From a phage: a DNA stretch of 24,537 nt. The notes beneath the pieces were generated by a model. That model saw only the letters and a list, made by a program, of their open reading frames with translations, was not told where the DNA came from and ran no database searches. Position numbers and translations under genes: made by a program. The DNA lies in the NCBI GenBank assembly GCA_025881525.1, contig GCA_025881525.1_4849.1. The stretch is one strand, 5' to 3'. Positions 2,970-18,138 of this stretch are shown in pieces. The stretch's first letter is position 1, and the number at the start of each line of letters is the position of its first letter.

Positions 2970-3128
2970 ATGATGCTTAAGCTAGCCCTCTCAAATATGG
3001 CGCTCGCAATGTTGATGTTTATCGCTGGCGGGGCTTCAGGAGCCGCCGCTTTCGCGATATGGGGATGCATGTTCATGCTGACGGCAACAATAATTACTAT
3101 TGTTGGAACTTCGCGTTATGGCTCGTAA
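2970..3128 (+). CDS. hypothetical small membrane peptide (52 aa)
   Basis: Translation MMLKLALSNMALAMLMFIAGGASGAAAFAIWGCMFMLTATIITIVGTSRYGS; overlaps terminase start. Confidence 0.3.
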   Translation: MMLKLALSNMALAMLMFIAGGASGAAAFAIWGCMFMLTATIITIVGTSRYGS

Positions 3129-4542
3129 ACGCCTGTCCGCTCTGGCAATCGAAAAGCTGGAAGCGCAGATTGATGACGCGATGACAGATGTTGCAGAGTC
3201 AGCTATCTTTGGCATCTGCGATATGCAGAAGAACGTCATAAAGCGGTTAAGGATGACTGCCACTGGCGTTGATGACGTGACCAATGCAACAACTCATGCT
3301 GACCACCTTATTCCGGCAAAACTTGAGAGACTGCTTTACCCCAAACGATTCAAGTTTGTCTACGGTGGCCGTGGGTCAGGGAAAACGAGAACGATTATCA
3401 CCATCCTTACTGAGCGCGCAAGGTTTCGACCTGACCGCTTTGCATGCTTTCGTGAGATTCAGCAATCCATTGAGGATTCAAGCTATCAGGAGCTTGTTGA
3501 TGAGATAGCCCGCAAGGGTGAATCGGCAGAGTTCCGTGTTATCAACAACGAGATAACACACAAGAAGACCAAAGCTAAATTTCGCTTTAAGGGTCTGTAT
3601 CGCAACCAGACTACGGTTAAAGGTTTTGCTGGCATCACCGTAGGCTGGGTAGAGGAAGCTGAGAACGTCAGCCAGACAAGCTGGGATATTCTTGTGCCTA
3701 CCATCCGTGCCGCCAATTCCGAACTGTGGTGTTCATTCAACCCCAACAAGGAAACAGACCCAACATGGAAAAACTGGATTGCCCCCTATCACTCACAGAT
3801 GGTTGATGGCATATTCGAAAATGATGAAATTCTGATTATCGAATGTAACTATTCAGACAACCCGTGGTTCTGGGATACGCCTCTGCCATCCGCTATGGAG
3901 CAAATGAAGCGCGTCGATTTCGACCGCTACATGTGGATATGGGAAGGCAAATTTAATAAACGCAGCGACGAGCAGGTCTTCGGCGGCAAATGGCGCATTG
4001 ATAACTTTGAGGTTAAACCTGAATGGCATGGCCCATACTTCGGGATGGACTTCGGATTCTCCACGGATCCTACCGCGATGGTTGAGGTTTATATCGAAGA
4101 GTTACCGGGTGGGCGGCGCAACATTTATATTAATCGCGAGTACGGCAAAGTTGGTCTTGAGATTACCGATACACCAGCCGCGATGGAGCAATCATTTCCG
4201 ATGGCTAAGCGCGCACGATGGTATGCCGACTGTGCGCGCCCAGAAACCATCAGTCACATCAAGCGCTCTGGATTTGATATTCACCCGTGCACAAAATGGC
4301 CAGGGAGTGTTGAGGATGGCGTAACGTGGCTGCGTGGGTGCGACAGCATCATCATCCACAATCGATGCAAGGAAATGCAGAATGAAGCGACAATGTACAG
4401 CTACAAGGTTGATAAACTGACTGGGAACGTGCTGACTGATATTGTTGATGCATTTAACCACTTCTGGGATGCAGTTCGCTACGCACTTAATGACCATATC
4501 GTTCAGCGTGGCAGTGGAATGCTCATCCGGCGCAGGCGATAA
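3118..4542 (+). CDS. terminase large subunit
   Basis: Walker A motif FVYGGRGSGKT near N-terminus, C-terminal nuclease-like region, about 475 aa; ORF track starts at TTG 3100, ATG 3118 preferred. Confidence 0.9.
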   Translation: MARKRLSALAIEKLEAQIDDAMTDVAESAIFGICDMQKNVIKRLRMTATGVDDVTNATTHADHLIPAKLERLLYPKRFKFVYGGRGSGKTRTIITILTERARFRPDRFACFREIQQSIEDSSYQELVDEIARKGESAEFRVINNEITHKKTKAKFRFKGLYRNQTTVKGFAGITVGWVEEAENVSQTSWDILVPTIRAANSELWCSFNPNKETDPTWKNWIAPYHSQMVDGIFENDEILIIECNYSDNPWFWDTPLPSAMEQMKRVDFDRYMWIWEGKFNKRSDEQVFGGKWRIDNFEVKPEWHGPYFGMDFGFSTDPTAMVEVYIEELPGGRRNIYINREYGKVGLEITDTPAAMEQSFPMAKRARWYADCARPETISHIKRSGFDIHPCTKWPGSVEDGVTWLRGCDSIIIHNRCKEMQNEATMYSYKVDKLTGNVLTDIVDAFNHFWDAVRYALNDHIVQRGSGMLIRRRR

Positions 4543-5913: not shown

Positions 5914-7329
5914 ATGAGCGACAAAATCGCAGTATTGAATGCGTACATTAAGGATAGAGTGGCGAACAACAACCGGGCGATTCAGCAACAGCGGCTTTGT
6001 GCTGGCGGGAAGAATCTTGACCAGAAGCACGATCGTCTCTGGACGGAGTGCGGGTACCCACAGGAAATCACTGCCGAGATGTTCCGCTATGCCTATGAGC
6101 GACACCCAGCCGCCGCCGCTGGCATTAACCGCATTATTAATAAATGCTGGCAGAAATACCCTGAAGTGGTAGAAGATGGCGAGGATGACAAGAATTCTAC
6201 ACCGTGGGAGTTGTCCATCAACGACATGATGAAGCGTGCTTATCCGTTCATCAAAGAGGCTGACAAGCGCAACGCCATCAACCGCTATTCCGCTGTTATC
6301 CTGCAAATCCGTGACGGCAAGCAATGGAGTGAGCCAGTAGACATCACCAAAACCCGCCGCATTAAAGATAAATCCATTGTTCGATTCATTCCGGTATGGG
6401 AAGAACAACTACGAGTCAGCGCATGGAATAATGACGAAACCAGCGAAGACTACGGAATGCCAGAGATGTACGAATACCAGGAAAGCGCCGTAGAGGATTT
6501 CGATAGCGACGGAAAGCCTGAACGTTCCGTGCAGATTCATCCTGACCGCATCATTATTCTGGCTGAGGGTAGTTTTGATGGCAGCATGTTCAGCGGCATC
6601 CCAATGTTGCGTGCTGGCTACAACAGTCTTATCGACATGGCTAAAGTTTCAGGAAGTTCTGCGGAAGGCTTCCTGAAGAATGCAAGCCGACAACTGGCTG
6701 TTAACTACACGAAGGATAACGTAACGCCAGCAAGCCTCGCACAGTCGATGGGTGTCGATATTGAAGAACTAACCGACATCATGAATGAGAACATCGAAGC
6801 GCTGAACTCAGGTATCGACGCCGCTATGTTCACAATGGGAGCTGATGCAAAAGTTCTCGCTGTGACGCCAGCCGACCCGAAACCAACATGGGAAGTAGCC
6901 GCCAACCAGTTCGCTGCATCAATGGCGCTTCCGTTCACCGTCATCTTTGGTCAGCAAACCGGGCGCCTTGCAAGCGATGAGGACAAGATGCAGGAGGCGA
7001 TGACTGCCAAGCAGCGCCGAGAAACATGGGTTGATTATGTCATCTCAATGTTCGTTGAGCGCATGATTCAGTTCGGCATTGTCGATAAAGCACCGGCAAA
7101 TGGCTACAAGGTTAAGTGGGATGACCTGCTTGCCCCATCTGAACTGGATAAAGCTGAATTGCTGTCTAAGCTCGCCACTGCCAACAAGTCGTTCTTTGAT
7201 GCTGGTCAATCTGCGTTGCTGACCGTCGATGAAGCTCGCGGCATGGTTGGCATGGAGCCGATTGAACTTGACGAGAGTTATCGCGAAGACATGCCACCGG
7301 AAGATGAAAATGAAGATATTCCGGTTTAA
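5914..7329 (+). CDS. portal protein (putative)
   Basis: 471 aa, acidic C-terminus, sits between terminase and Mu F-like gene; GAGGG RBS; assignment by size and synteny. Confidence 0.7.
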
Positions 7330-8260
7330 CGCAAGGCTTCCACAGCCGCGCATATCGCAGAGTCTGACTGACCCGTTAGGAGCTGCAACTCGCCTGTCGA
7401 AGATGGACAAGGTGATAACGCGCAAATACAAACAACTAAGGACTCGTGCGCTTGAGTTGTTTCGATCTATTCCTCATAGTCAGGCTAACGCAGAATCGAG
7501 CGGCCTGTATTTCTACGATTTCAGCAGCGCGCGAGCTGCCACTTTCATGGATGAGCTACAGGCGCTGATTGACGAGATTCTGCTTGAAGGTGATGATTTC
7601 GGTCACGGCAGAATGTGGGCCAATGTGTTCATCGGTGATGCATACCAGGCTGGAACGCAGAAGGCCAACTCAGAGCTGTCAAGTCTTTCTCCGGTTTATG
7701 CTGAGCAAAGACCTATTGCTGCGATACTCTACAGTGAGCCTTACCTGAATCGACTCCAACTGGCTTATACGCAGGGATATTCAGACTGGCGCGGATTGAG
7801 TGATTATTCCCGCCAGCAACTGGCATCTGTCATTATGGAAGGCATTGCCCGTGGTGCTAATCCTCGCGATGTTGAAGCTGACATTGTTAAGCGTTTGGAT
7901 GTGTCACATAGTTACGCGAAACAGATAGCGCAAACCGAAATCACCGGAACGCTCAGGCAGGCTAACAGGCGAGAAGTTATTGAGGCGCGCGAAGAGTTAG
8001 GTATTGAAACGGTGATGCTGTGGCAGTCGGCATTAATGCGCACAACCCGCCAGACGCACGGGTCTAAACATGGACGGTTTTTTACTCCAGAGCAGATTGA
8101 TGATTTCTACTCTCGTGATGGCAATAAATATAATTGTCACTGCGCACAGGTACCAACACTGCTAATGGATGGCAAGCCAGTCATTCTTGAGTCATCGCAG
8201 GAAAGGCTCGATAAGCAGCGCGAGGCGTGGCAGGCGAGCAATAAAAAAGCCACCAAGTAG
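7310..8260 (+). CDS. head morphogenesis protein, Mu F-like / SPP1 gp7 family
   Basis: C-terminal conserved region [15 protein letters not shown] and YNCHCA typical of the family; ORF track start 7229 lies inside portal, ATG 7304/7310 preferred. Confidence 0.8.
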
Positions 8261-8275: not shown

Positions 8276-8400
8276 TTCGATGCCAGAATGAAACTTGCTG
8301 CCATCCAGATATTGGCGATTATCATGTTTGTATCACTATTAGTGATTATCGATAAAATTAACCAGCAAACACCAAGAGCAAATGCAAGCAACCATCGCAT
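8272..8400 (-). CDS. hypothetical small membrane peptide (42 aa)
   Basis: Minus-strand translation MRWLLAFALGVCWLILSIITNSDTNMIIANIWMAASFILASK; start 1 nt after upstream stop; last gene before terminator. Confidence 0.3.
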   Translation of the reverse strand: MRWLLAFALGVCWLILSIITNSDTNMIIANIWMAASFILASK

Positions 8401-8401
8401 A

Positions 8402-8947
8402 TTAATCATCCAGTTTCACGCCGGGAATCTTGCCTGCTGCGATGGCGTCGTAAATGAATGTGGCATCATTAATTCTCGGGTCGTCACCATAATCAAACAT
8501 TAACAATTCTTTTATCTTCTCCACTGCTGCATCTCGCTTCTTTTCTGCTTCTGTGCGAAGTGGGATGAAAACATCCTTATTGGATGGGGTTATTGCGTAG
8601 TAAATTTCACCAGATGGTCTGATAACTATTTTTTCGCCATCAATACCAATAACCTTGACTTTTCCCCATGACGTTCCGTTGCCGATATACTCACATTCAC
8701 ACCCAGCTGGCGGGACCCCTTCGCCGTTCCATGCTGGCTTTTGTAATGCGGCGAGTGCGGATTCGTATTGCTGCTTAGTAACCACATCCGCAATCCAGTC
8801 ATCGCATTTTTTGAGTTTAAAGTCACTGCAATAGTCAGATTCCATTTCAAACAACTGGCCCTCACTATCTTGCTCTACAGCATCAACTCCATCAGGCCAA
8901 CCACCACGCTTAGGCAATTCTTGAACTAACAGGTCGATAAGTTTCAT
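8402..8947 (-). CDS. hypothetical protein (181 aa)
   Basis: Long ORF in minus-strand operon with overlapping start/stop to neighbours. Confidence 0.65.
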   Translation of the reverse strand: MKLIDLLVQELPKRGGWPDGVDAVEQDSEGQLFEMESDYCSDFKLKKCDDWIADVVTKQQYESALAALQKPAWNGEGVPPAGCECEYIGNGTSWGKVKVIGIDGEKIVIRPSGEIYYAITPSNKDVFIPLRTEAEKKRDAAVEKIKELLMFDYGDDPRINDATFIYDAIAAGKIPGVKLDD

Positions 8948-9168
8948 TTTGTTTCTCCATCAGAAAGTATTTCTTTATATTCACCCTCAACCTCGTACAG
9001 ATCACCCAGCTTAAATACCTCATACGAGTTTTGGCCTCCTTCTCGCCATGAGTGAACCTCATTCAGTTTTTCAGCCACCGCATTAGCCTCCTGTTCAGTT
9101 GGGTAAACAGCAACCACATTTGATGAAACGCCGCATTCGATACACCCAATATTAAATACAAGCCACAT
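8944..9168 (-). CDS. hypothetical protein (74 aa)
   Basis: ORF in minus-strand operon. Confidence 0.55.
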   Translation of the reverse strand: MWLVFNIGCIECGVSSNVVAVYPTEQEANAVAEKLNEVHSWREGGQNSYEVFKLGDLYEVEGEYKEILSDGETK

Positions 9169-9170
9169 GA

Positions 9171-9485
9171 TTATTCTCCCAGTGCCTTATTAACCGCCGC
9201 ACGCGCATTATCCAGAACGCGACGCTTGCTTGATGTTGTCCAGACTTTGCCGTCTGCAGAATCGTAACATTCAATCATTTGCTGCATAGCAGCAATTAAT
9301 TCGGAAATAATCATGTCACGATAACCTAACTCCGCAGCAATGGCTGACTTTGGGTGTAAAGACTCAGATGTCATGGCGGATACATGCTTTAAGTAAAGCC
9401 CACCAAAATTATCAAGAGCCTCTATGTCACGCTCTGCATACAAATTGTTACTGTCAGTCATTTGATATACTCCATAATCTCGCAT
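9171..9485 (-). CDS. hypothetical protein (104 aa)
   Basis: ORF in minus-strand operon. Confidence 0.6.
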   Translation of the reverse strand: MRDYGVYQMTDSNNLYAERDIEALDNFGGLYLKHVSAMTSESLHPKSAIAAELGYRDMIISELIAAMQQMIECYDSADGKVWTTSSKRRVLDNARAAVNKALGE

Positions 9486-9601
9486 TCACGCATCTGCACC
9501 AGACCAAATGGTGCAACCACCTTGCCGCACGGACGGACTTTGATTTGCTCAAGACCGAACATTCCGCATCGTCCGTTCTCTTTGAATTTTACCATCACCA
9601 T
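9458..9601 (-). CDS. hypothetical small Cys-containing protein (47 aa)
   Basis: Translation MVMVKFKENGRCGMFGLEQIKVRPCGKVVAPFGLVQMRECEIMEYIK; fills gap in operon; overlaps next gene by 28 nt. Confidence 0.25.
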   Translation of the reverse strand: MVMVKFKENGRCGMFGLEQIKVRPCGKVVAPFGLVQMRECEIMEYIK

Positions 9602-9603
9602 GA

Positions 9604-9762
9604 TTAATGCCCGTTCTTCTTGGCTAATTGTTGCGCGCGCTTCTTCGTGTACCCGCAGGCCATCAGGCGCTTGACCTCGTTGCGGCGCTTTGCGAAATGG
9701 TACTCACGAGAATTAAATGCGCATTCGTTGCTAAAGGTAACATTACGTGGATTCATCTTCAT
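9604..9762 (-). CDS. hypothetical small basic protein (52 aa)
   Basis: Translation MKMNPRNVTFSNECAFNSREYHFAKRRNEVKRLMACGYTKKRAQQLAKKNGH; GAGTGAGGTG RBS; first gene of the minus block. Confidence 0.35.
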   Translation of the reverse strand: MKMNPRNVTFSNECAFNSREYHFAKRRNEVKRLMACGYTKKRAQQLAKKNGH

Positions 9763-9780
9763 CACCTCACTCATCGTTTG

Positions 9781-9836
9781 ATGTAGATACTATGCACCAC
9801 CACTCAATCTACGTCAACAGTCATTGTGATAGAATT
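9781..9836. promoter_or_regulatory. divergent promoter region: TTGACG -35 (minus, 9812-9817) and extended -10 TGaTAGAAT (plus, 9827-9835), built around the 15-mer AATCTACGTCAACAG
   Basis: Read directly; located between divergently oriented gene blocks. Confidence 0.45.
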
Positions 9837-9861
9837 AATCATTATTTGAACAGGAGGCAGA

Positions 9862-10140
9862 ATGAAGCTATCGCAACGCGGCGCGGAGGCTCTCGGAATC
9901 ACCGATGCCGTGGATATATCGCCTTACATCACCACTGAGACAACGCAGAATCAGTTTGATGCACTGACAAGTCTTGCTGCCGACATCGGCATTGACTCGT
10001 TCCGCAAATCAACGCTTCTGAAGAAACACAATCTCCGCTGCTTCTCATGTGTCGTTGCTCATTTCATCGTGTGGGGCGAGAAGACTGGCGACAAAGCAAA
10101 ACGCAAAGCTGAAAAAGAGGTTTACTGGTATGGCTATTAG
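9862..10140 (+). CDS. GH24 (T4/P22-type) lysozyme-like remnant lacking the catalytic N-terminal core (92 aa)
   Basis: C-terminal half QNQFDALTSLAADIGIDSFRKSTLLKKHNL resembles P22 gp19 NQNQYDALCSLIFNIGKSAFAGSTVLRQLNL (from memory); no E-x8-D-x5-T catalytic block; GGAGG RBS. Confidence 0.5.
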   Translation: MKLSQRGAEALGITDAVDISPYITTETTQNQFDALTSLAADIGIDSFRKSTLLKKHNLRCFSCVVAHFIVWGEKTGDKAKRKAEKEVYWYGY

Positions 10141-10594
10141 CAAAAACATGAAAGCGTTTCTGGATATGCTGGCATACAGCGAGGGCACGGATAACGGGCG
10201 ACAGAAAACCAATAATCATGGCTATGATGTGATTGTTGGTGGCTCGTTGTTTACCGACTACTCAGACCACCCGCGCAAGCTGATTAGCCTGCCTAAGCTG
10301 GGCATCAAATCCACCGCCGCCGGTCGCTATCAGGTGCTGGCTAAATTTTATGATGCATACAAAAAGCAGTTGCGTCTGCCTGACTTCTCTCCCGCATCTC
10401 AGGATGCTATTGCAATGCAGCTAATCCGTGAATGCAAGGCCACCGCTGATATTGAGGCTGGTCGCATTGCTGATGCCATCCATAAATGCCGCTCCCGCTG
10501 GGCTTCATTGCCGGGCGCTGGTTATGGTCAGCATGAGCAGAAACTGGATAAGCTGATTCAGGTATACAAAGAGGCTGGCGGAGTTGTGGCATGA
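10130..10594 (+). CDS. R: endolysin, lambda R-type lytic transglycosylase
   Basis: KAFLDMLAYSEGTDNGRQKTNNHGYDVIVGG...DYSDHPRKL...AGRYQ closely matches lambda R as recalled; ATG 10130 with AAAGAGG RBS preferred over track start 10049. Confidence 0.9.
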   Translation: MAISKNMKAFLDMLAYSEGTDNGRQKTNNHGYDVIVGGSLFTDYSDHPRKLISLPKLGIKSTAAGRYQVLAKFYDAYKKQLRLPDFSPASQDAIAMQLIRECKATADIEAGRIADAIHKCRSRWASLPGAGYGQHEQKLDKLIQVYKEAGGVVA

Positions 10595-10830
10595 AAAAGC
10601 TAAGCAACTGGCTGCTCGGCGCGTGGATTTCATTCTGCTCACTATTGCAGCTATGGCCTGATGCAATGATGCATGTGTGGGTAATGATGCCGGATGACCT
10701 GAAAGCAGCGCTACCGCCAATCGTGGTTAAAGGTGTGAGCTACTCAATCATGCTTGTTGGCATCCTCGGCAAAATGCACGGCATGAGGAAGGAAAACCGG
10801 AGGCTGCGCAATGATGTCAATTCTCGCTAA
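10591..10830 (+). CDS. putative holin (two TM segments, highly basic C-terminus)
   Basis: Hydrophobic WLLGAWISFCSLLQLW and VSYSIMLVGILG with C-terminal KMHGMRKENRRLRNDVNSR; sits between endolysin and spanins. Confidence 0.45.
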   Translation: MKKLSNWLLGAWISFCSLLQLWPDAMMHVWVMMPDDLKAALPPIVVKGVSYSIMLVGILGKMHGMRKENRRLRNDVNSR

Positions 10831-11302
10831 ATACTGGCGACCGCTGGCAATTATTATAATTGCTGCTGCTGGTGCGTTGTGGGTGCGTGGCGAAATTATC
10901 AGCTACGGCGACCAGCGATACGCAGAAGGCAAAGCTCAAGCAATCGCAGACCAGAAGGCCGCAGACGAACAAGAGGAGCAACGACGCAATGCAGAACTGC
11001 AAAAAATTCAGGCCGACGCACAGCAAAGAATTGATGCTGCGCGCAATGATGCTGTTAATGCTGCCGCTAAGTCTGGCAGGTTGCAGCAACAACTCACCAG
11101 TATCCGCAAGCAGCTCGTCGGATATTTCACCTCTGAGTCCATTGGCAACCCAGCCGCAGAAACCGGAGTTTTGCTTGGAGACGTGCTCAGCAAATCTGTC
11201 GAAAGAAATCGACAACTGGCAGATTATGCTGACAGGGCGAGAGAAGCGGGATTAGCGTGTGAGGCGCAGTACAATTCGCTGCGTAATAAAAAAGCCCCGT
11301 AA
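10811..11302 (+). CDS. Rz: i-spanin (Rz-like)
   Basis: N-terminal TM (LAIIIIAAAGALWV) followed by charged coiled-coil periplasmic domain; GGAGG RBS; hosts an embedded lipoprotein ORF. Confidence 0.7.
   Translation: MMSILAKYWRPLAIIIIAAAGALWVRGEIISYGDQRYAEGKAQAIADQKAADEQEEQRRNAELQKIQADAQQRIDAARNDAVNAAAKSGRLQQQLTSIRKQLVGYFTSESIGNPAAETGVLLGDVLSKSVERNRQLADYADRAREAGLACEAQYNSLRNKKAP
11034..11255 (+). CDS. Rz1: o-spanin (Rz1-like), embedded in +1 frame within Rz
   Basis: Lipoprotein signal with lipobox MLRAMMLLMLPLSLAG-C, Pro/Ser-rich mature part; fully nested in i-spanin gene. Confidence 0.6.
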   Translation: MLRAMMLLMLPLSLAGCSNNSPVSASSSSDISPLSPLATQPQKPEFCLETCSANLSKEIDNWQIMLTGREKRD

Positions 11303-11318
11303 TGGGGCTTGTGTTTAA
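11285..11318. terminator. bidirectional hairpin terminator (GCCCC-gtaat-GGGGC) flanked by A-run and T-rich tract
   Basis: Read directly; spanin stop codon in loop; convergent gene blocks meet here. Confidence 0.6.
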
Positions 11319-11441
11319 TTGCTTTGCTCAGAATCTTCTCTCTGCTTCCACATCTGCTTCAGCTGAAAATAAGCATATGCCTCATCACCATCCTTCGCAT
11401 TGCGTTCCATTTGTTCACACCATGCTGATGGTTTTGGTGGC

Positions 11442-11750
11442 TCACTCTGCTGGCACTGTTGCTGGCTCATCAACAGATTCCTCAGTTGCAGTTTCAACGA
11501 TGCGCACCAACGAACATTCAAGGTTCGGCGCATTGTAATTACCAGCCAGAAACAGAACGCTGCCGGTGCTAATCAGCACCTGTTTCGCGTTTGCCTGCGA
11601 CAGGTTCTGCACGATGAATTGCGCCGTTTCCGTGCCGATTTTTAGCACTGCGCTGCCGTCGCTATTCAGTGACACCAGTTGTGCGGAAGTGTCGGTAATG
11701 TTGGTATAGCTCGCGTTTCGTTGCGCGATGGTGATGTCGCAGAATGCCAT
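11442..11750 (-). CDS. hypothetical protein (102 aa)
   Basis: ORF in minus-strand operon; 3-prime end and the 140 bp between it and the terminator are unresolved. Confidence 0.5.
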   Translation of the reverse strand: MAFCDITIAQRNASYTNITDTSAQLVSLNSDGSAVLKIGTETAQFIVQNLSQANAKQVLISTGSVLFLAGNYNAPNLECSLVRIVETATEESVDEPATVPAE

Positions 11751-11947
11751 TATTTAATCTCTCCATTCAGTTCATTAACAATTAACGTTGCATAGCCAGC
11801 AATATCCTTCCAGCTATCGTCATATGTCGGGTCGCCATTCAGAATGCGCCCAATCTTGTGCTGAATCATGTCGAGCGCCTCGCGTTGGCTTGGTGTCATG
11901 TTATGCCAGCCATCCACTTCGCGCATGACAGTTTTCAGTTCCTGCAT
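11750..11947 (-). CDS. hypothetical protein (65 aa)
   Basis: ORF in minus-strand operon. Confidence 0.55.
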   Translation of the reverse strand: MQELKTVMREVDGWHNMTPSQREALDMIQHKIGRILNGDPTYDDSWKDIAGYATLIVNELNGEIK

Positions 11948-12001
11948 GATTTCAGCACCGTCTTTGAATTTGCCGTATCGACTACCGCGTTCGGTGATGA
12001 G

Positions 12002-12271
12002 TTACTCAGTAGTATCAGCTTCCGGCGCGCCAATGCAATCATTGAGGTCTTGCTCGTCATTTTCAAAAACGAACGACCACGATGGGTATTCGGCGAAAAA
12101 TTTATACCCATACTTATCAATCCCCTCTATTCTCGCGCATCTGCCAGCATCAACTTTTTTCAGTGTCATTGACTCAAATTGAATGTCATCATATGACTGC
12201 TCGATGCTTTGCGATTTATATATACGCACCGGACCGCCAGTACCAGAGTAAACCAGTTTGCCTTTAATCAT
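12002..12271 (-). CDS. hypothetical protein (89 aa)
   Basis: ATG 12271 overlapping upstream stop (ATGA) with GGAGAGAG RBS preferred over track start 12283. Confidence 0.55.
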   Translation of the reverse strand: MIKGKLVYSGTGGPVRIYKSQSIEQSYDDIQFESMTLKKVDAGRCARIEGIDKYGYKFFAEYPSWSFVFENDEQDLNDCIGAPEADTTE

Positions 12272-12492
12272 TTCTCTCTCCACTTAATCATCTCGCGTCG
12301 CGGCATTGTGACGCGGTTGTATTCATCAACATTAAAATTGGCCCGAATCAAATCATACATCTCATCCTTTGGCATATCAGCCAGCGCCACATAGCAACGG
12401 GCAAAGTAGCGAACATCACGGAGTGTCAGCGGCTGCCGCTTCTCCACAATGCTGGTGATAATGTCCATCGGCTCGCGTCGTGGTCTTGGCAT
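12268..12492 (-). CDS. hypothetical protein (74 aa)
   Basis: First ORF of minus block, AAGGAG RBS on minus strand. Confidence 0.55.
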   Translation of the reverse strand: MPRPRREPMDIITSIVEKRQPLTLRDVRYFARCYVALADMPKDEMYDLIRANFNVDEYNRVTMPRREMIKWREK

Positions 12493-12519
12493 ATTTACTA
12501 CTCCTTTTTCGAAATTTAT

Positions 12520-12575
12520 TATTGACGAATCTACGTCACTTAGTCAATACTGTTGGTGTAGAATGATTCTACCAC
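12520..12575. promoter_or_regulatory. divergent regulatory region with TTGACG, AATCTACGTCA motif, inverted repeat TGACG-N6-CGTCA and 15-bp palindrome GTAGAATgATTCTAC (12558-12572)
   Basis: Read directly; between divergently transcribed blocks. Confidence 0.4.
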
Positions 12576-12596
12576 AACGGAAAAGGTGATGTGGAA

Positions 12597-12794
12597 ATGC
12601 AATATAAAGAAATAGCAGCGAGATACCAGAAGGAAGTTCGCGAGGTTATGGAAATCCTTAATGTTCGCGAGGATACCATTAAGTTTGTGGAAACTGCCAT
12701 GTGCTCACTGGCACTTGAAGCGGAGGTTGCAGGTCGTGAAAAGGCTGACGAACTTATATCTGCGGTGGTTTATAGTTCAACCAGTAACGGTTGA
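12597..12794 (+). CDS. hypothetical protein (65 aa)
   Basis: ORF track starts at GTG 12591; ATG 12597 with AAGGTG RBS preferred. Confidence 0.5.
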   Translation: MQYKEIAARYQKEVREVMEILNVREDTIKFVETAMCSLALEAEVAGREKADELISAVVYSSTSNG

Positions 12795-12854
12795 GGATGA
12801 AGGTTATCTGTGCGTTGAGCACGTTGTTATCAAGTTCTACGGGAGAAATTATAA

Positions 12855-13049
12855 ATGGCGCATGACGAGCTGTACGAAGAATCGTTAATCCAGCGACTGA
12901 ATGAAGTTGAACGCACTCGCGAATGGCTGGAGTGCGAATTGCGAGAAGTGCGTAACCGACTGCAACGTAAGCGCAGTCAACAGAAGGATGTTATCGACTG
13001 GTCTGGCGATGCGCCTAAATTTAACAACATTGGAGAATGGTTGAAATGA
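12855..13049 (+). CDS. hypothetical protein, predicted coiled coil (64 aa)
   Basis: ORF in plus block. Confidence 0.5.
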   Translation: MAHDELYEESLIQRLNEVERTREWLECELREVRNRLQRKRSQQKDVIDWSGDAPKFNNIGEWLK

Positions 13050-13258
13050 GAAAGCTCAGTACGATACACGAATTGGTTTTAGCTGACATTCGTGAGTTAA
13101 ATGCCAGAAGCAAGAAACACAGAAATCAGCGGGAAAGTCATGCTACTCGCGACTTTATCAAGCAGATCTCACAGAACAACAAACGAAACAGTTATAGACG
13201 CGATAGAGTTTTGTTAAGGCTCTGTGATTTAAATATGAAAAGATACTTAAGGATATGA
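13046..13258 (+). CDS. hypothetical basic protein (70 aa)
   Basis: ATG 13046 overlapping upstream stop (ATGA) preferred over track start 13037. Confidence 0.45.
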   Translation: MRKLSTIHELVLADIRELNARSKKHRNQRESHATRDFIKQISQNNKRNSYRRDRVLLRLCDLNMKRYLRI

Positions 13259-13262
13259 CAAA

Positions 13263-13514
13263 ATGAGCGCACCATATATGCCGATGATGAATGACGAAAT
13301 GCTGCTTGAGTGTCCGTTTTGTGGAGATGCTCATGCGTATATAGATAACGATGGTCCTGGCGCGTTTTATGTCGCTTGCTCGCAGTGTGGGTGTGGTACT
13401 GATGAGTGGCCTCACCAAGCATCAGCAGTGAAGTCATGGAATACTCGCAACGGTCACCTCTACACCGCAGGCGACTTCAATCAGGTAGCAGAGGAACGCG
13501 ATTATGGATTATAA
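13263..13514 (+). CDS. Lar-family restriction alleviation-like zinc-ribbon protein
   Basis: CPFCG ... CSQCGC ... WNTR arrangement typical of Lar family small proteins (from memory). Confidence 0.55.
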   Translation: MSAPYMPMMNDEMLLECPFCGDAHAYIDNDGPGAFYVACSQCGCGTDEWPHQASAVKSWNTRNGHLYTAGDFNQVAEERDYGL

Positions 13515-13992
13515 GTCACAAATCATGCGCGTGATTGTCAATCATCCTGGAGCAACGCGTGCATATATTGAGAAGCATTGCGGCGGAAAGCATTCAAGCA
13601 CCACAACGCACCGTCTGCATGAAATGCTTGCGCTTGGCTTCATTCGTCGCGAGAAGTCAGTGATTCGTGGTGGTAAGTGGCAGTATAAATATTTCATCTC
13701 TGATGATGCGCCTGGAATTGATGATGCGATTAAGTGCCATTTGCTTGATAACGCTGGCGCAGAAGTGAAAGATATTAGCTCAGCCACTGGCATTGATTAT
13801 CGCATCGTGAAAAGCCGCATTCGCATCATGTTTCATAACGGAGATGTGACGCGAAGCTATGATCATCATAAGAAGTTTTGGCGTTATTCATGGAAGGAGA
13901 AGGAAGTAAATGTGAGCAACCTTTTTAATTCACTCCTTCGCAACGTAAGAGGTCAGCATGGGGAAAACCAAACGCAAGAAGCAAGAGTATGA
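13504..13992 (+). CDS. putative DNA-binding protein with two winged-helix-like repeats (162 aa)
   Basis: Two similar segments (around NHPGATRAYIEKH and DNAGAEVKDISSATGIDYRIVKSRI); inferred from pattern only. Confidence 0.5.
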   Translation: MDYKSQIMRVIVNHPGATRAYIEKHCGGKHSSTTTHRLHEMLALGFIRREKSVIRGGKWQYKYFISDDAPGIDDAIKCHLLDNAGAEVKDISSATGIDYRIVKSRIRIMFHNGDVTRSYDHHKKFWRYSWKEKEVNVSNLFNSLLRNVRGQHGENQTQEARV

Positions 13993-14134
13993 AACGCTGC
14001 CACCATGCGAAATGTCAGGAATGCCGCAGCATGAGGATGTGATTCTCACCGAAGCTGAGTGGCGCAAAGTGGCAAGAGTGCAAATCATGTTCCGCAAACT
14101 TGCTGAGGACGTACTAAATGAGATGGGCTATTAA
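13958..14134 (+). CDS. hypothetical small protein (58 aa)
   Basis: ATG with GTAAGAGG RBS; overlaps 3-prime end of previous gene in another frame; below ORF-track cutoff. Confidence 0.25.
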   Translation: MGKTKRKKQEYETLPPCEMSGMPQHEDVILTEAEWRKVARVQIMFRKLAEDVLNEMGY

Positions 14135-14501
14135 GCATAAATCCGGCAGAACTCTGTTTATTACATCTGATGAGTTTATTGCCAATAACCGTAGAGAGAT
14201 GGGGTGGATAGTGGAGGAAGTGAAGATGACGAGTAGAGAGCAGTTTGAAGCAAGCTGGTTGCGACGCGGAGGTGAGGAGTCAGACCTTGTCCGTTACCAT
14301 GAAAATCACCACGAGGTTGGCAGTGGTAATGTTGGTGGTCAGTATGTGATTGATGATGTTCAAGGTCACTGGCAAACATGGCAGGCATCACGCACAGAAA
14401 TTGAGATTCAAGCGTGCCCATGCCCAAACGATCATGGACCGAATGTTGATGACCATTATCGCGAGCAAATTAATAACGCAGGCTTAAAGGTGAAAAAATG
14501 A
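14118..14501 (+). CDS. hypothetical protein (127 aa)
   Basis: ORF in plus block. Confidence 0.55.
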   Translation: MRWAIKHKSGRTLFITSDEFIANNRREMGWIVEEVKMTSREQFEASWLRRGGEESDLVRYHENHHEVGSGNVGGQYVIDDVQGHWQTWQASRTEIEIQACPCPNDHGPNVDDHYREQINNAGLKVKK

Positions 14502-14824
14502 TTATCCCATTAAACGACATCATGAAAGCAGACATCATCCAGCTTGAAAATTATGACATGCAACTGGCGTTTGAGATCGAAACTGTTGAACGTCAACTGC
14601 AATATGCGGATAAGAAGAATGATCGCATCTGGCATGAGAAAGCACTTAAGGCGCGTGACCACATGAAGCGCACGCGAGCACTTATTAAAACCCGTCTGGA
14701 TAAGCTGTATTTTGGCGAAGAGCGCATGCTGCATGGCGCGATACTGGCGCAAATCCGAAAGGAAATGCCAATTGGCAAATTCATGACATACGTTCACCGA
14801 GCAAAGCAGGAGGCTGGGTTATGA
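14498..14824 (+). CDS. hypothetical protein (108 aa)
   Basis: ORF with ATGA overlap to upstream gene. Confidence 0.55.
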   Translation: MIIPLNDIMKADIIQLENYDMQLAFEIETVERQLQYADKKNDRIWHEKALKARDHMKRTRALIKTRLDKLYFGEERMLHGAILAQIRKEMPIGKFMTYVHRAKQEAGL

Positions 14825-14967
14825 TTCCATTACTGTGGATATTATCGGCCTACTCATTCGCAAGGGTATTTGAGGCTGACACTCTGTACCAGATGATTTG
14901 CTATGGTGCTCTGTTCTGCCTGTCAGGTGCTGCGCTAGCATTTATGGATGATGTGATTTCAGACTAA
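14821..14967 (+). CDS. hypothetical small membrane peptide (48 aa)
   Basis: Translation MIPLLWILSAYSFARVFEADTLYQMICYGALFCLSGAALAFMDDVISD; start overlaps upstream stop. Confidence 0.3.
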   Translation: MIPLLWILSAYSFARVFEADTLYQMICYGALFCLSGAALAFMDDVISD

Positions 14968-15022
14968 CTCCGTATATCTTTTGTTCATCATGGGCTGCTA
15001 TCATTTAATCAGGAGGTAGCCC

Positions 15023-15145
15023 ATGAATATGATCCCTATCACTTACTTTCTCACGCTATACGCACTCACCAATTCGCCACTGTTTGCACTGGCTACCGCC
15101 TCATGGTGTTATATCTCCCTGTGTTATAATTCGACCACAAACTAA
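15023..15145 (+). CDS. hypothetical small hydrophobic peptide (40 aa)
   Basis: Strong AGGAGGT RBS 6 nt upstream; translation MNMIPITYFLTLYALTNSPLFALATASWCYISLCYNSTTN. Confidence 0.3.
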   Translation: MNMIPITYFLTLYALTNSPLFALATASWCYISLCYNSTTN

Positions 15146-15161
15146 CCGTGGAGAGTTAACC

Positions 15162-17065
<1,904 letters not shown>

Positions 17066-17067
17066 TA

Positions 17068-18138
17068 ATGGAAAAGATTATTTTTACCAAAGACCTGGTA
17101 GCCAACTCCGCAGTGGTGGCTGACCAGTGGAAACATCTCACCATCGACCGCAAGGTGTTCTGCAACGCAGAAGCTGAGCTGGCTAAAACCTATGGTGTTA
17201 ACGCCACTGCACTGGTAACGAAAGATTACTGGCGCGACGTGGACAACGTCACGACCCGTGTTTTCCGCAACGAGGCTGGTCAGGATATGATGGCTGACCT
17301 GATGGGTATCGCGGCAAACATCAATATCGGTAAGACTGTGGCAATCAGCCGTATCGCTTCCGATGCTGGCAAGGTCGTCCGCACCCTGTCTGGTCAGGAG
17401 CCGGAAGATTTGGATAAAACTCGCTACGATTACACTGGCGATGTGATTCCAATCTTCAAGACTGGCTACAGCCGCGAATGGCGCGAACTGCTGGGTATGC
17501 AGTCCGAAGGTTTTGACCCGCTGCTGGACGATCAGGCTAACGTCACCTTTAACCTGCGTTCAGATATGGCACAATACCTGCTGACTGGCGACCAGACTCT
17601 GAACGTGAATGGCGTTTACACTGGCTACGGTATCACCAACCACCCGAACACTGTTCAGGTTAACCTGAATGCTTCCGGCGGTCTGAATATCGACCTGCAA
17701 ACTGCAACGCCAGACGAAATCGTGACCTTCTTCAATCAGGATTTCCAGGCTATTCTGGATGCACAGAACGTATTTGAGCAGGTTACTCTGTGGGTTTCCC
17801 CGGCAGTACGTCGCAGCTTCATGCGTCCGTATTCTAACGCGGCAGGCTTCAAAGGTGGCACTGTTGAGCAGTACATCACGCAGTTCGGCAATGGTCGCAT
17901 CGGCAAGATTGGCACCAACTTCCTGCTGACTGGTAACCATTTCGTTGGCTATGTTCGCAACGACATGTACATCCGTCCGCGTGTTGCTCAGCCAGTTTCC
18001 ACCTATGCGGCAGCCCGTGACAATCCGCACGATAACTTTAACTTTATGGTGTGGTCTGCTTTTGGTCTGCAGATTCGCAAGGATGCCGCTGGAAAAAGCC
18101 GCGTCTTTAATGGCTATGGTAGCCAGGAAGCTAAATAA
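17068..18138 (+). CDS. major capsid protein (putative)
   Basis: 356 aa, position after scaffold/decoration genes, followed by strong terminator; synteny-based. Confidence 0.6.
   Translation: MEKIIFTKDLVANSAVVADQWKHLTIDRKVFCNAEAELAKTYGVNATALVTKDYWRDVDNVTTRVFRNEAGQDMMADLMGIAANINIGKTVAISRIASDAGKVVRTLSGQEPEDLDKTRYDYTGDVIPIFKTGYSREWRELLGMQSEGFDPLLDDQANVTFNLRSDMAQYLLTGDQTLNVNGVYTGYGITNHPNTVQVNLNASGGLNIDLQTATPDEIVTFFNQDFQAILDAQNVFEQVTLWVSPAVRRSFMRPYSNAAGFKGGTVEQYITQFGNGRIGKIGTNFLLTGNHFVGYVRNDMYIRPRVAQPVSTYAAARDNPHDNFNFMVWSAFGLQIRKDAAGKSRVFNGYGSQEAK

Follow-up and report, generated by a model that had tools for sequence, protein, structure and literature searches.

A small gene on the plus strand of a phage contig (13263-13514 of the 24,537-nucleotide GCA_025881525.1_4849.1, referred to below in its entirety as the window) encodes a single-domain, four-cysteine zinc ribbon of the Lar family (PF14354 / TIGR03655), and comparison with its relatives indicates that old, functionally constrained core alleles have been swapped by recombination inside the conserved frame of this protein. 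The family assignment is correct but already public, and a finding that reproduces RefSeq and BASEL annotation matters little; the internal mosaic is the sole aspect that goes beyond existing annotation and is worth following up. The label itself calls for caution: hundreds of phages bear the name ‘restriction alleviation protein’ on the strength of one experiment from 1995, performed on a protein only 26% identical to the one described here and whose function was later disputed, and relatives that carry this gene stay sensitive to restriction.

A four-cysteine zinc ribbon of the Lar family

The open reading frame starts with ATG, preceded at a distance of 9 nt by a Shine-Dalgarno-like AAGGA read from the sequence (13249-13253, plus strand), and its product in the list of open reading frames is the 83-residue MSAPYMPMMNDEMLLECPFCGDAHAYIDNDGPGAFYVACSQCGCGTDEWPHQASAVKSWNTRNGHLYTAGDFNQVAEERDYGL. 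It is packed tightly between its neighbours, the upstream gene stopping at 13258, 4 nt ahead of the start, and the downstream gene beginning at 13504, an overlap of 11 nt. Exactly as the first-pass annotation had described, the 83-aa protein carries a CPFCG...CxxCG...WNTR pattern, comprising a first zinc knuckle, CPFCG, at residues 17-21 (13311-13325), a second, CSQCG, at residues 39-43 (13377-13391), and WNTR at residues 59-62 (13437-13448), all on the plus strand. Our comparison set consisted of 66 related IMG/VR loci (L002-L067) with 62 distinct proteins, and among these 62 orthologues C17, C20, C39, C42, W59, N60, T61 and R62 are invariant. Between the first knuckle and WNTR lies a zinc-ribbon core (residues 22-58, 13326-13436, plus strand), made up of the second knuckle, a beta-hairpin and a helix, that is hypervariable by entropy and by its division into core types; after WNTR follows a conserved, lineage-specific C-terminal tail, NGHLYTAGDFNQVAEERDYGL (13449-13511, plus strand), which lies beyond the Pfam domain.

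This pattern is far beyond chance (PF14354 E 1.1e-11; phrog_599, ‘Lar-like restriction alleviation protein’, E 2.2e-16 in PHROG). A Pfam scan matches residues 14-63 to PF14354 (Lar_restr_allev) at 45.2 bits against a gathering score of 28.6, and the NCBIfam model TIGR03655 (anti_R_Lar) is passed marginally, at 40.1 bits against a cut-off of 39.6, so that the earlier Lar-family call survived the profile search proposed as its check in both curated models, in the second of them narrowly. The founding member of the family is b1348 of the Rac prophage in E. coli K-12 MG1655, formerly Lar and now ralR, which itself scores 53.5 bits against PF14354. Pairwise BLASTP aligns it to the window protein at 26% identity over 54 aa, and a profile built from the 62 orthologues recovers it at 32.7 bits, with C17/C20/C39/C42/W59/N60/R62 in register with C9/C12/C30/C33/W50/N51/R53 of Rac Lar and WNTR 59-62 aligned to RalR W50-N51-K52-R53. 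As far as sequence can speak, we regard membership of the Lar family as sound, because the curated models are passed and RalR is recovered with its cysteines and WNxR in register. The protein is likewise small and single-domained (83 aa) and phage-encoded, the window holding terminase, portal, endolysin, spanin and capsid genes. With Rac Lar/RalR it has in common the PF14354 family, the CPFCG...CxxC...WNxR layout, the small single-domain size and a phage origin; it differs in being longer than RalR at both ends, by 8 residues at the N-terminus and by a conserved tail of 21 residues at the C-terminus, in a Thr where RalR has K52, and in its setting, a virulent siphovirus in which the gene lies beside structural genes, whereas ralR lies beside recET in a lambdoid prophage.

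The AF2 model (mean pLDDT 86) is a plain zinc ribbon with a hairpin at residues 25-39 and a helix at 52-59, to which a low-confidence helix at 69-80 is added in the C-terminal tail; no nuclease site is recognisable in it. The nearest solved folds are zinc ribbons of the Elf1 type, with scores below significance, and the resemblance to Elf1/ELOF1 is that of generic zinc ribbons and does not imply homology. A search of solved structures by sequence gave chance-level matches only (E at least 0.15) and no Lar-family structure.

Phage group and genomic neighbourhood

The window belongs to a Skatevirus-like small siphovirus with a virulent lifestyle. Phages of Salmonella, Escherichia, Klebsiella and Shigella account for the 182 records that match the 2.6 kb around the Lar-like gene, with nucleotide identities of 80-95%. 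By tblastn, 202 phage records contain a relative of the protein (42-92% identity). Bas77-81, the E. coli isolates closest to the window, are grouped as a Skatevirus cluster in the BASEL paper (PMC11990801). Orthologues in these Skatevirus-like phages (swi2, Bas77-81, DS8, IME207, Skate, VSt472, KFS-SE2 and others, 42-92% protein identity) occupy the same place, between a small upstream gene and a winged-helix gene, and differ from the window protein chiefly in core type. Many RefSeq and BASEL records label the orthologue ‘Lar-like restriction alleviation protein’, and in ASO78B it is a ‘restriction alleviation protein, Lar family’; since the relatives already bear this label, the assignment is not new.

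Within the window the large terminase (3100-4542), portal (5914-7329) and head morphogenesis (7229-8260) genes are followed by an endolysin (10049-10594), an Rz-like spanin (10811-11302) and a block of small minus-strand genes (11442-12492). The Lar-like gene was said to stand upstream of the capsid genes and it does, with the head decoration gene at 16598-17065, itself preceded by a gene for a phrog_760 protein, and the major capsid gene at 17068-18138. The head module is thus split, a lysis cassette and a mosaic accessory block of ~3.7 kb standing between the head-morphogenesis and the decoration/capsid genes (8300-15100), a gene order that is unusual and that the relatives have as well.

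The Lar-like gene itself sits in a tightly packed, co-directional block of small plus-strand genes (12591-14967, from the list of open reading frames), whose gene content is mosaic across the 66 related loci. The remaining genes there fall into PHROG families without an assigned function, in agreement with an earlier remark on unknown small proteins nearby, and scans of Pfam, NCBIfam and PHROG families found no known anti-defence gene among them. The broader suggestion of an anti-defence or host-interaction locus consequently finds no support beyond the Lar-like gene itself and its downstream neighbour, which weakly matches the Ren-like family phrog_142. Immediately upstream lies a gene for a 73-aa DUF7301 protein (13037-13258, plus strand; PF23975, 75.7 bits), whose relatives tblastn detects at just 29 of the 66 loci. 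The gene immediately downstream (13504-13992, plus strand), encoding a protein of 162 aa with two weakly winged-helix-like halves, is found together with the Lar-like gene in 65 of the 66. With relatives in 202 phage records, the Lar-like gene appears to be kept throughout the phage group although the surrounding block is mosaic.

The 162-aa protein matches phrog_1687 (‘MarR family’) at E 9e-57 and, weakly, Pfam MarR_2 over residues 6-52 (E 0.003) and TrmB over residues 80-125 (E 0.017), its second half also finding phrog_142 (‘Ren-like exclusion protein’) at E 1.3e-6. The two winged-helix-like repeats proposed for it at first reading are plausible, each half having a weak match of its own, but they are weakly supported, for the halves align in register with an hhalign E of 0.0012 and a probability of only 19%. 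One could read the Lar-like protein as the partner of this translationally coupled neighbour, serving phage or host transcription regulation in a phage-internal role unrelated to defence, a proposal that seems to us improbable.

Apparently exchanged cores inside a conserved frame

Variation along the protein is uneven. Mean column entropy is 0.86 bits over residues 1-21 and 0.64 bits over residues 59-83, against 2.27 bits over the core (22-58). The conservation of the tail, whose 21-residue consensus is NGHLYTADDFNQAAEERDYGL, extends past the end of the Pfam match at residue 63, and the tail has a pN/pS of 0.29 with abundant synonymous change. Mean pairwise pS reaches 0.72 at the N-terminus and 0.51 at the C-terminus against a pN of ~0.14, so what is conserved in the termini is the protein and not the DNA. 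Grouped at 60% identity or more, the cores make up 23 types, four of which are paired with more than one C-terminal type, and among 271 pairs of proteins with termini at least 90% identical, 187 have cores less than 40% identical, the core being short and its alignment across types uncertain. The window protein’s own core type is common to eight other orthologues, swi2 among them. In the DNA, too, the core forms a local trough, with coverage in ~22 of 66 loci against 31-35 of 66 for the termini.

In the 56 pairs whose cores are unsaturated, core dN/dS is 0.30, and pS is lower in the core than in the termini (0.13 against 0.36). With dN/dS of 0.21 in the termini and 0.30 within core types, both parts are under purifying selection, and purifying selection on the termini and on each core type implies that the protein is functional. 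Positive selection in the core was considered and rejected, dN/dS being 0.30 within types and synonymous sites saturated between them. These patterns indicate neither ongoing positive selection nor decay, and instead the exchange, by recombination, of old core alleles that are each functionally constrained.

A swappable core fits a specificity module, proves nothing of the kind, and points to no particular target. One could go further and suppose a modular protein, with an exchangeable core set in a frame that stays constant (N-terminal segment, zinc ligands, WNTR and lineage-specific acidic tail). The core would come in ~23 old types, each under purifying selection, that recombine between phage backgrounds and match different host targets, perhaps including defences beyond type IA restriction-modification (RM); as one joint claim, this seems to us unlikely. 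Should the core prove to be a specificity module, the BASEL phages would offer a tractable system in which to learn what Lar-family proteins bind.

Candidate roles in counter-defence

Within the family, Rac Lar is the only member previously tested, and its role is disputed. In outline, King & Murray (1995) described Rac Lar as alleviating restriction by EcoKI and enhancing modification, in analogy with lambda Ral. Guo et al. 2014 (PMC4041452) later gave the Rac protein a new reading, under the name RalR: a toxin that acts as a non-specific DNase, depends on Mg/Ca and is controlled by an antisense sRNA, RalA. They stated that it ‘does not inhibit restriction modification’. Besides that paper and the PhageMaP preprint discussed below, the literature on the mechanism of Lar, RalR or PF14354 holds annotation-level mentions only. 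The anti-restriction role that we infer here thus comes from one distant and disputed precedent, and the phenotypes of close relatives lend it no positive support.

The reading we prefer, tentatively and at rather less than an even chance, is that of a partial Lar/Ral-like modulator of type IA RM. By analogy with Rac Lar and lambda Ral, the Lar-like protein would act as a small, protein-binding modulator of host DNA-targeting defence, its target being, as for those two, a type IA RM enzyme such as EcoKI, and unmodified phage DNA would be methylated instead of cut, combining restriction alleviation with enhanced modification. The functional face would probably be the invariant surface, to which the first knuckle and WNTR contribute together with the N-terminal segment and the tail; the exchangeable core types might tune specificity or stability. 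Protection would be partial, with restriction not blocked. Escherichia, Salmonella and Klebsiella, hosts of this phage group, carry type IA systems, and the window does not avoid EcoKI sites (AAC N6 GTGC), of which it has three (2480, 5071 and 12692) against 3.65 expected in 24.5 kb; a counter-measure against type I systems would therefore be useful to the phage. The BASEL relatives Bas77-80 have one such site each in ~46 kb.

The phenotypes of those relatives count against this reading. Bas77-81, all carriers of the orthologue, were described as ‘markedly sensitive to RM systems’ (PMC11990801). In the raw data of that study Bas77 plates with an efficiency (EOP) of 0.04-0.08 on EcoKI (one site), of 6e-4 to 1e-3 on EcoCFT_I, also a type I system (two sites), and of ~3e-5 on EcoRI, and Bas80 (one EcoKI site) at ~0.2 on EcoKI (5e7 vs 2.5e8 pfu). 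From these efficiencies it follows that the orthologue gives no strong protection; measured on a single EcoKI site and without a deletion control, they are nevertheless compatible with a partial Ral-like effect. Sensitivity to RM weakens the Lar/Ral-like reading without refuting it, because lambda carrying Ral is also still strongly restricted by EcoKI. The same reading is weakened by the low identity to Rac Lar, by the late structural genes adjoining the locus and by promoter matches at chance level.

A sequence relationship to lambda Ral is not detectable, the Ral family being absent from the Pfam matches of the window protein up to E = 1, and lambda Ral is not known to be a Cys4 zinc ribbon. 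Ocr of T7 and ArdA are likewise small proteins of mobile elements, directed against type I RM. As acidic DNA mimics that block the enzyme outright, they are unrelated to the Lar-like protein in fold and mechanism; phages with the Lar-like gene are still restricted.

A protein of the same fold might equally serve counter-defence or host takeover through a target other than type I RM, such as a type IV or other DNA-sensing defence, with the swapped core types matching different host targets, and we rate this reading, including that last element, as somewhat unlikely. It draws on a preprint (PhageMaP, PMC11482910) in which the Lar-like gene of the virulent phage Bas63, gene 32, shows host-dependent essentiality, a result that we count for counter-defence: its essentiality is lower in DH10B than in strains where type IV systems are present and no type I RM system is intact. 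Type I systems do not account for this difference, and the preprint suggests type IV systems instead. The Skatevirus isolates that bear the gene are, moreover, sensitive to both type I systems tested (EcoKI and EcoCFT_I), and ~23 old core types swapped between backgrounds are better explained by a variable target than by the conserved HsdM. Yet what Bas63 offers is a preprint's indirect inference about a protein that resembles Rac Lar more closely than the window protein does, and variability of the core could merely reflect low constraint on the hairpin.

That the gene should instead encode a RalR-like non-specific DNase, damaging host DNA as a toxin or host-shutoff factor, strikes us as very improbable. 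RalR does belong to the same Pfam family at 53.5 bits, and the purified protein is reported to cleave DNA in a Mg/Ca-dependent manner (PMC4041452). Changes at its positions 14, 37, 39, 49, 51 and 52 lower toxicity, and K52Q abolishes DNA cleavage (PMC4041452). Of these residues (C14, T37, Y39, R49, N51 and K52) the window protein keeps two of six, T37 as T46 and N51 as N60; C14, Y39 and R49 are not conserved and fall at positions that vary among the orthologues, and K52 is replaced by an invariant Thr (T61) in 62 of 62. The fold, as noted, is a plain zinc ribbon. In an Rfam scan of the window neither a RalA-like antitoxin RNA nor any other family reached its gathering score, a result that bears on RalA only if Rfam has a model of it, and the DNA flanking the Lar-like gene is taken up by coding genes on the same strand. 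The residue mapping and the missing RalA-like RNA together argue against a toxin of the RalR type.

Regulatory elements and minor features of the window

The minus- and plus-strand blocks of small genes diverge from an intergenic region (12493-12590) that is conserved at the DNA level in 48 of the 66 loci, above the flanking genes. Promoter-like hexamers occur in it on both strands, though across the scanned region such matches are no more numerous than chance predicts; in ASO78B a promoter is annotated at the matching position. The operon that includes the Lar-like gene is likely to have its promoter region here, and control of the accessory block is probably centred on this stretch; an early promoter for the operon was not demonstrable by promoter scan, the number of sites equalling the chance expectation.

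A GC-rich, terminator-like hairpin, AAGCCCCGTAATGGGGCTT, stands at 11292-11310, directly 3' of the spanin gene, where it divides the lysis cassette from the convergent small genes of the minus strand. It is found on both strands, with a clear T-run on the minus strand only, and ASO78B has terminators annotated there. Among the minus-strand genes, a 93-aa open reading frame (12002-12283) is covered at the DNA level in only ~5 of the 66 loci and partly matches phrog_17775, the PHROG family of the adjacent 65-aa gene (11750-11947); one possibility is a cassette that was gained or rearranged recently.

A second, stable hairpin, at ~14985-15025 (minimum free energy -21.2 kcal/mol over 14960-15060, z -2.06), extends as far as the ATG of a 40-aa open reading frame (15023-15145) and has the AGGAGG ribosome-binding site of that frame enclosed in it. 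It was rejected as a canonical terminator because it has no T-run, unlike the terminator annotated in ASO78B, and it may be an element of translational control. For the open reading frame at 15084-16598 the list gives 504 aa from a TTG at 15084. The true start is probably the ATG at 15162, which has GGAGAG ahead of it and yields 478 aa, a length close to the 470 aa of the orthologues in the ASO78B and Bas80 annotations.
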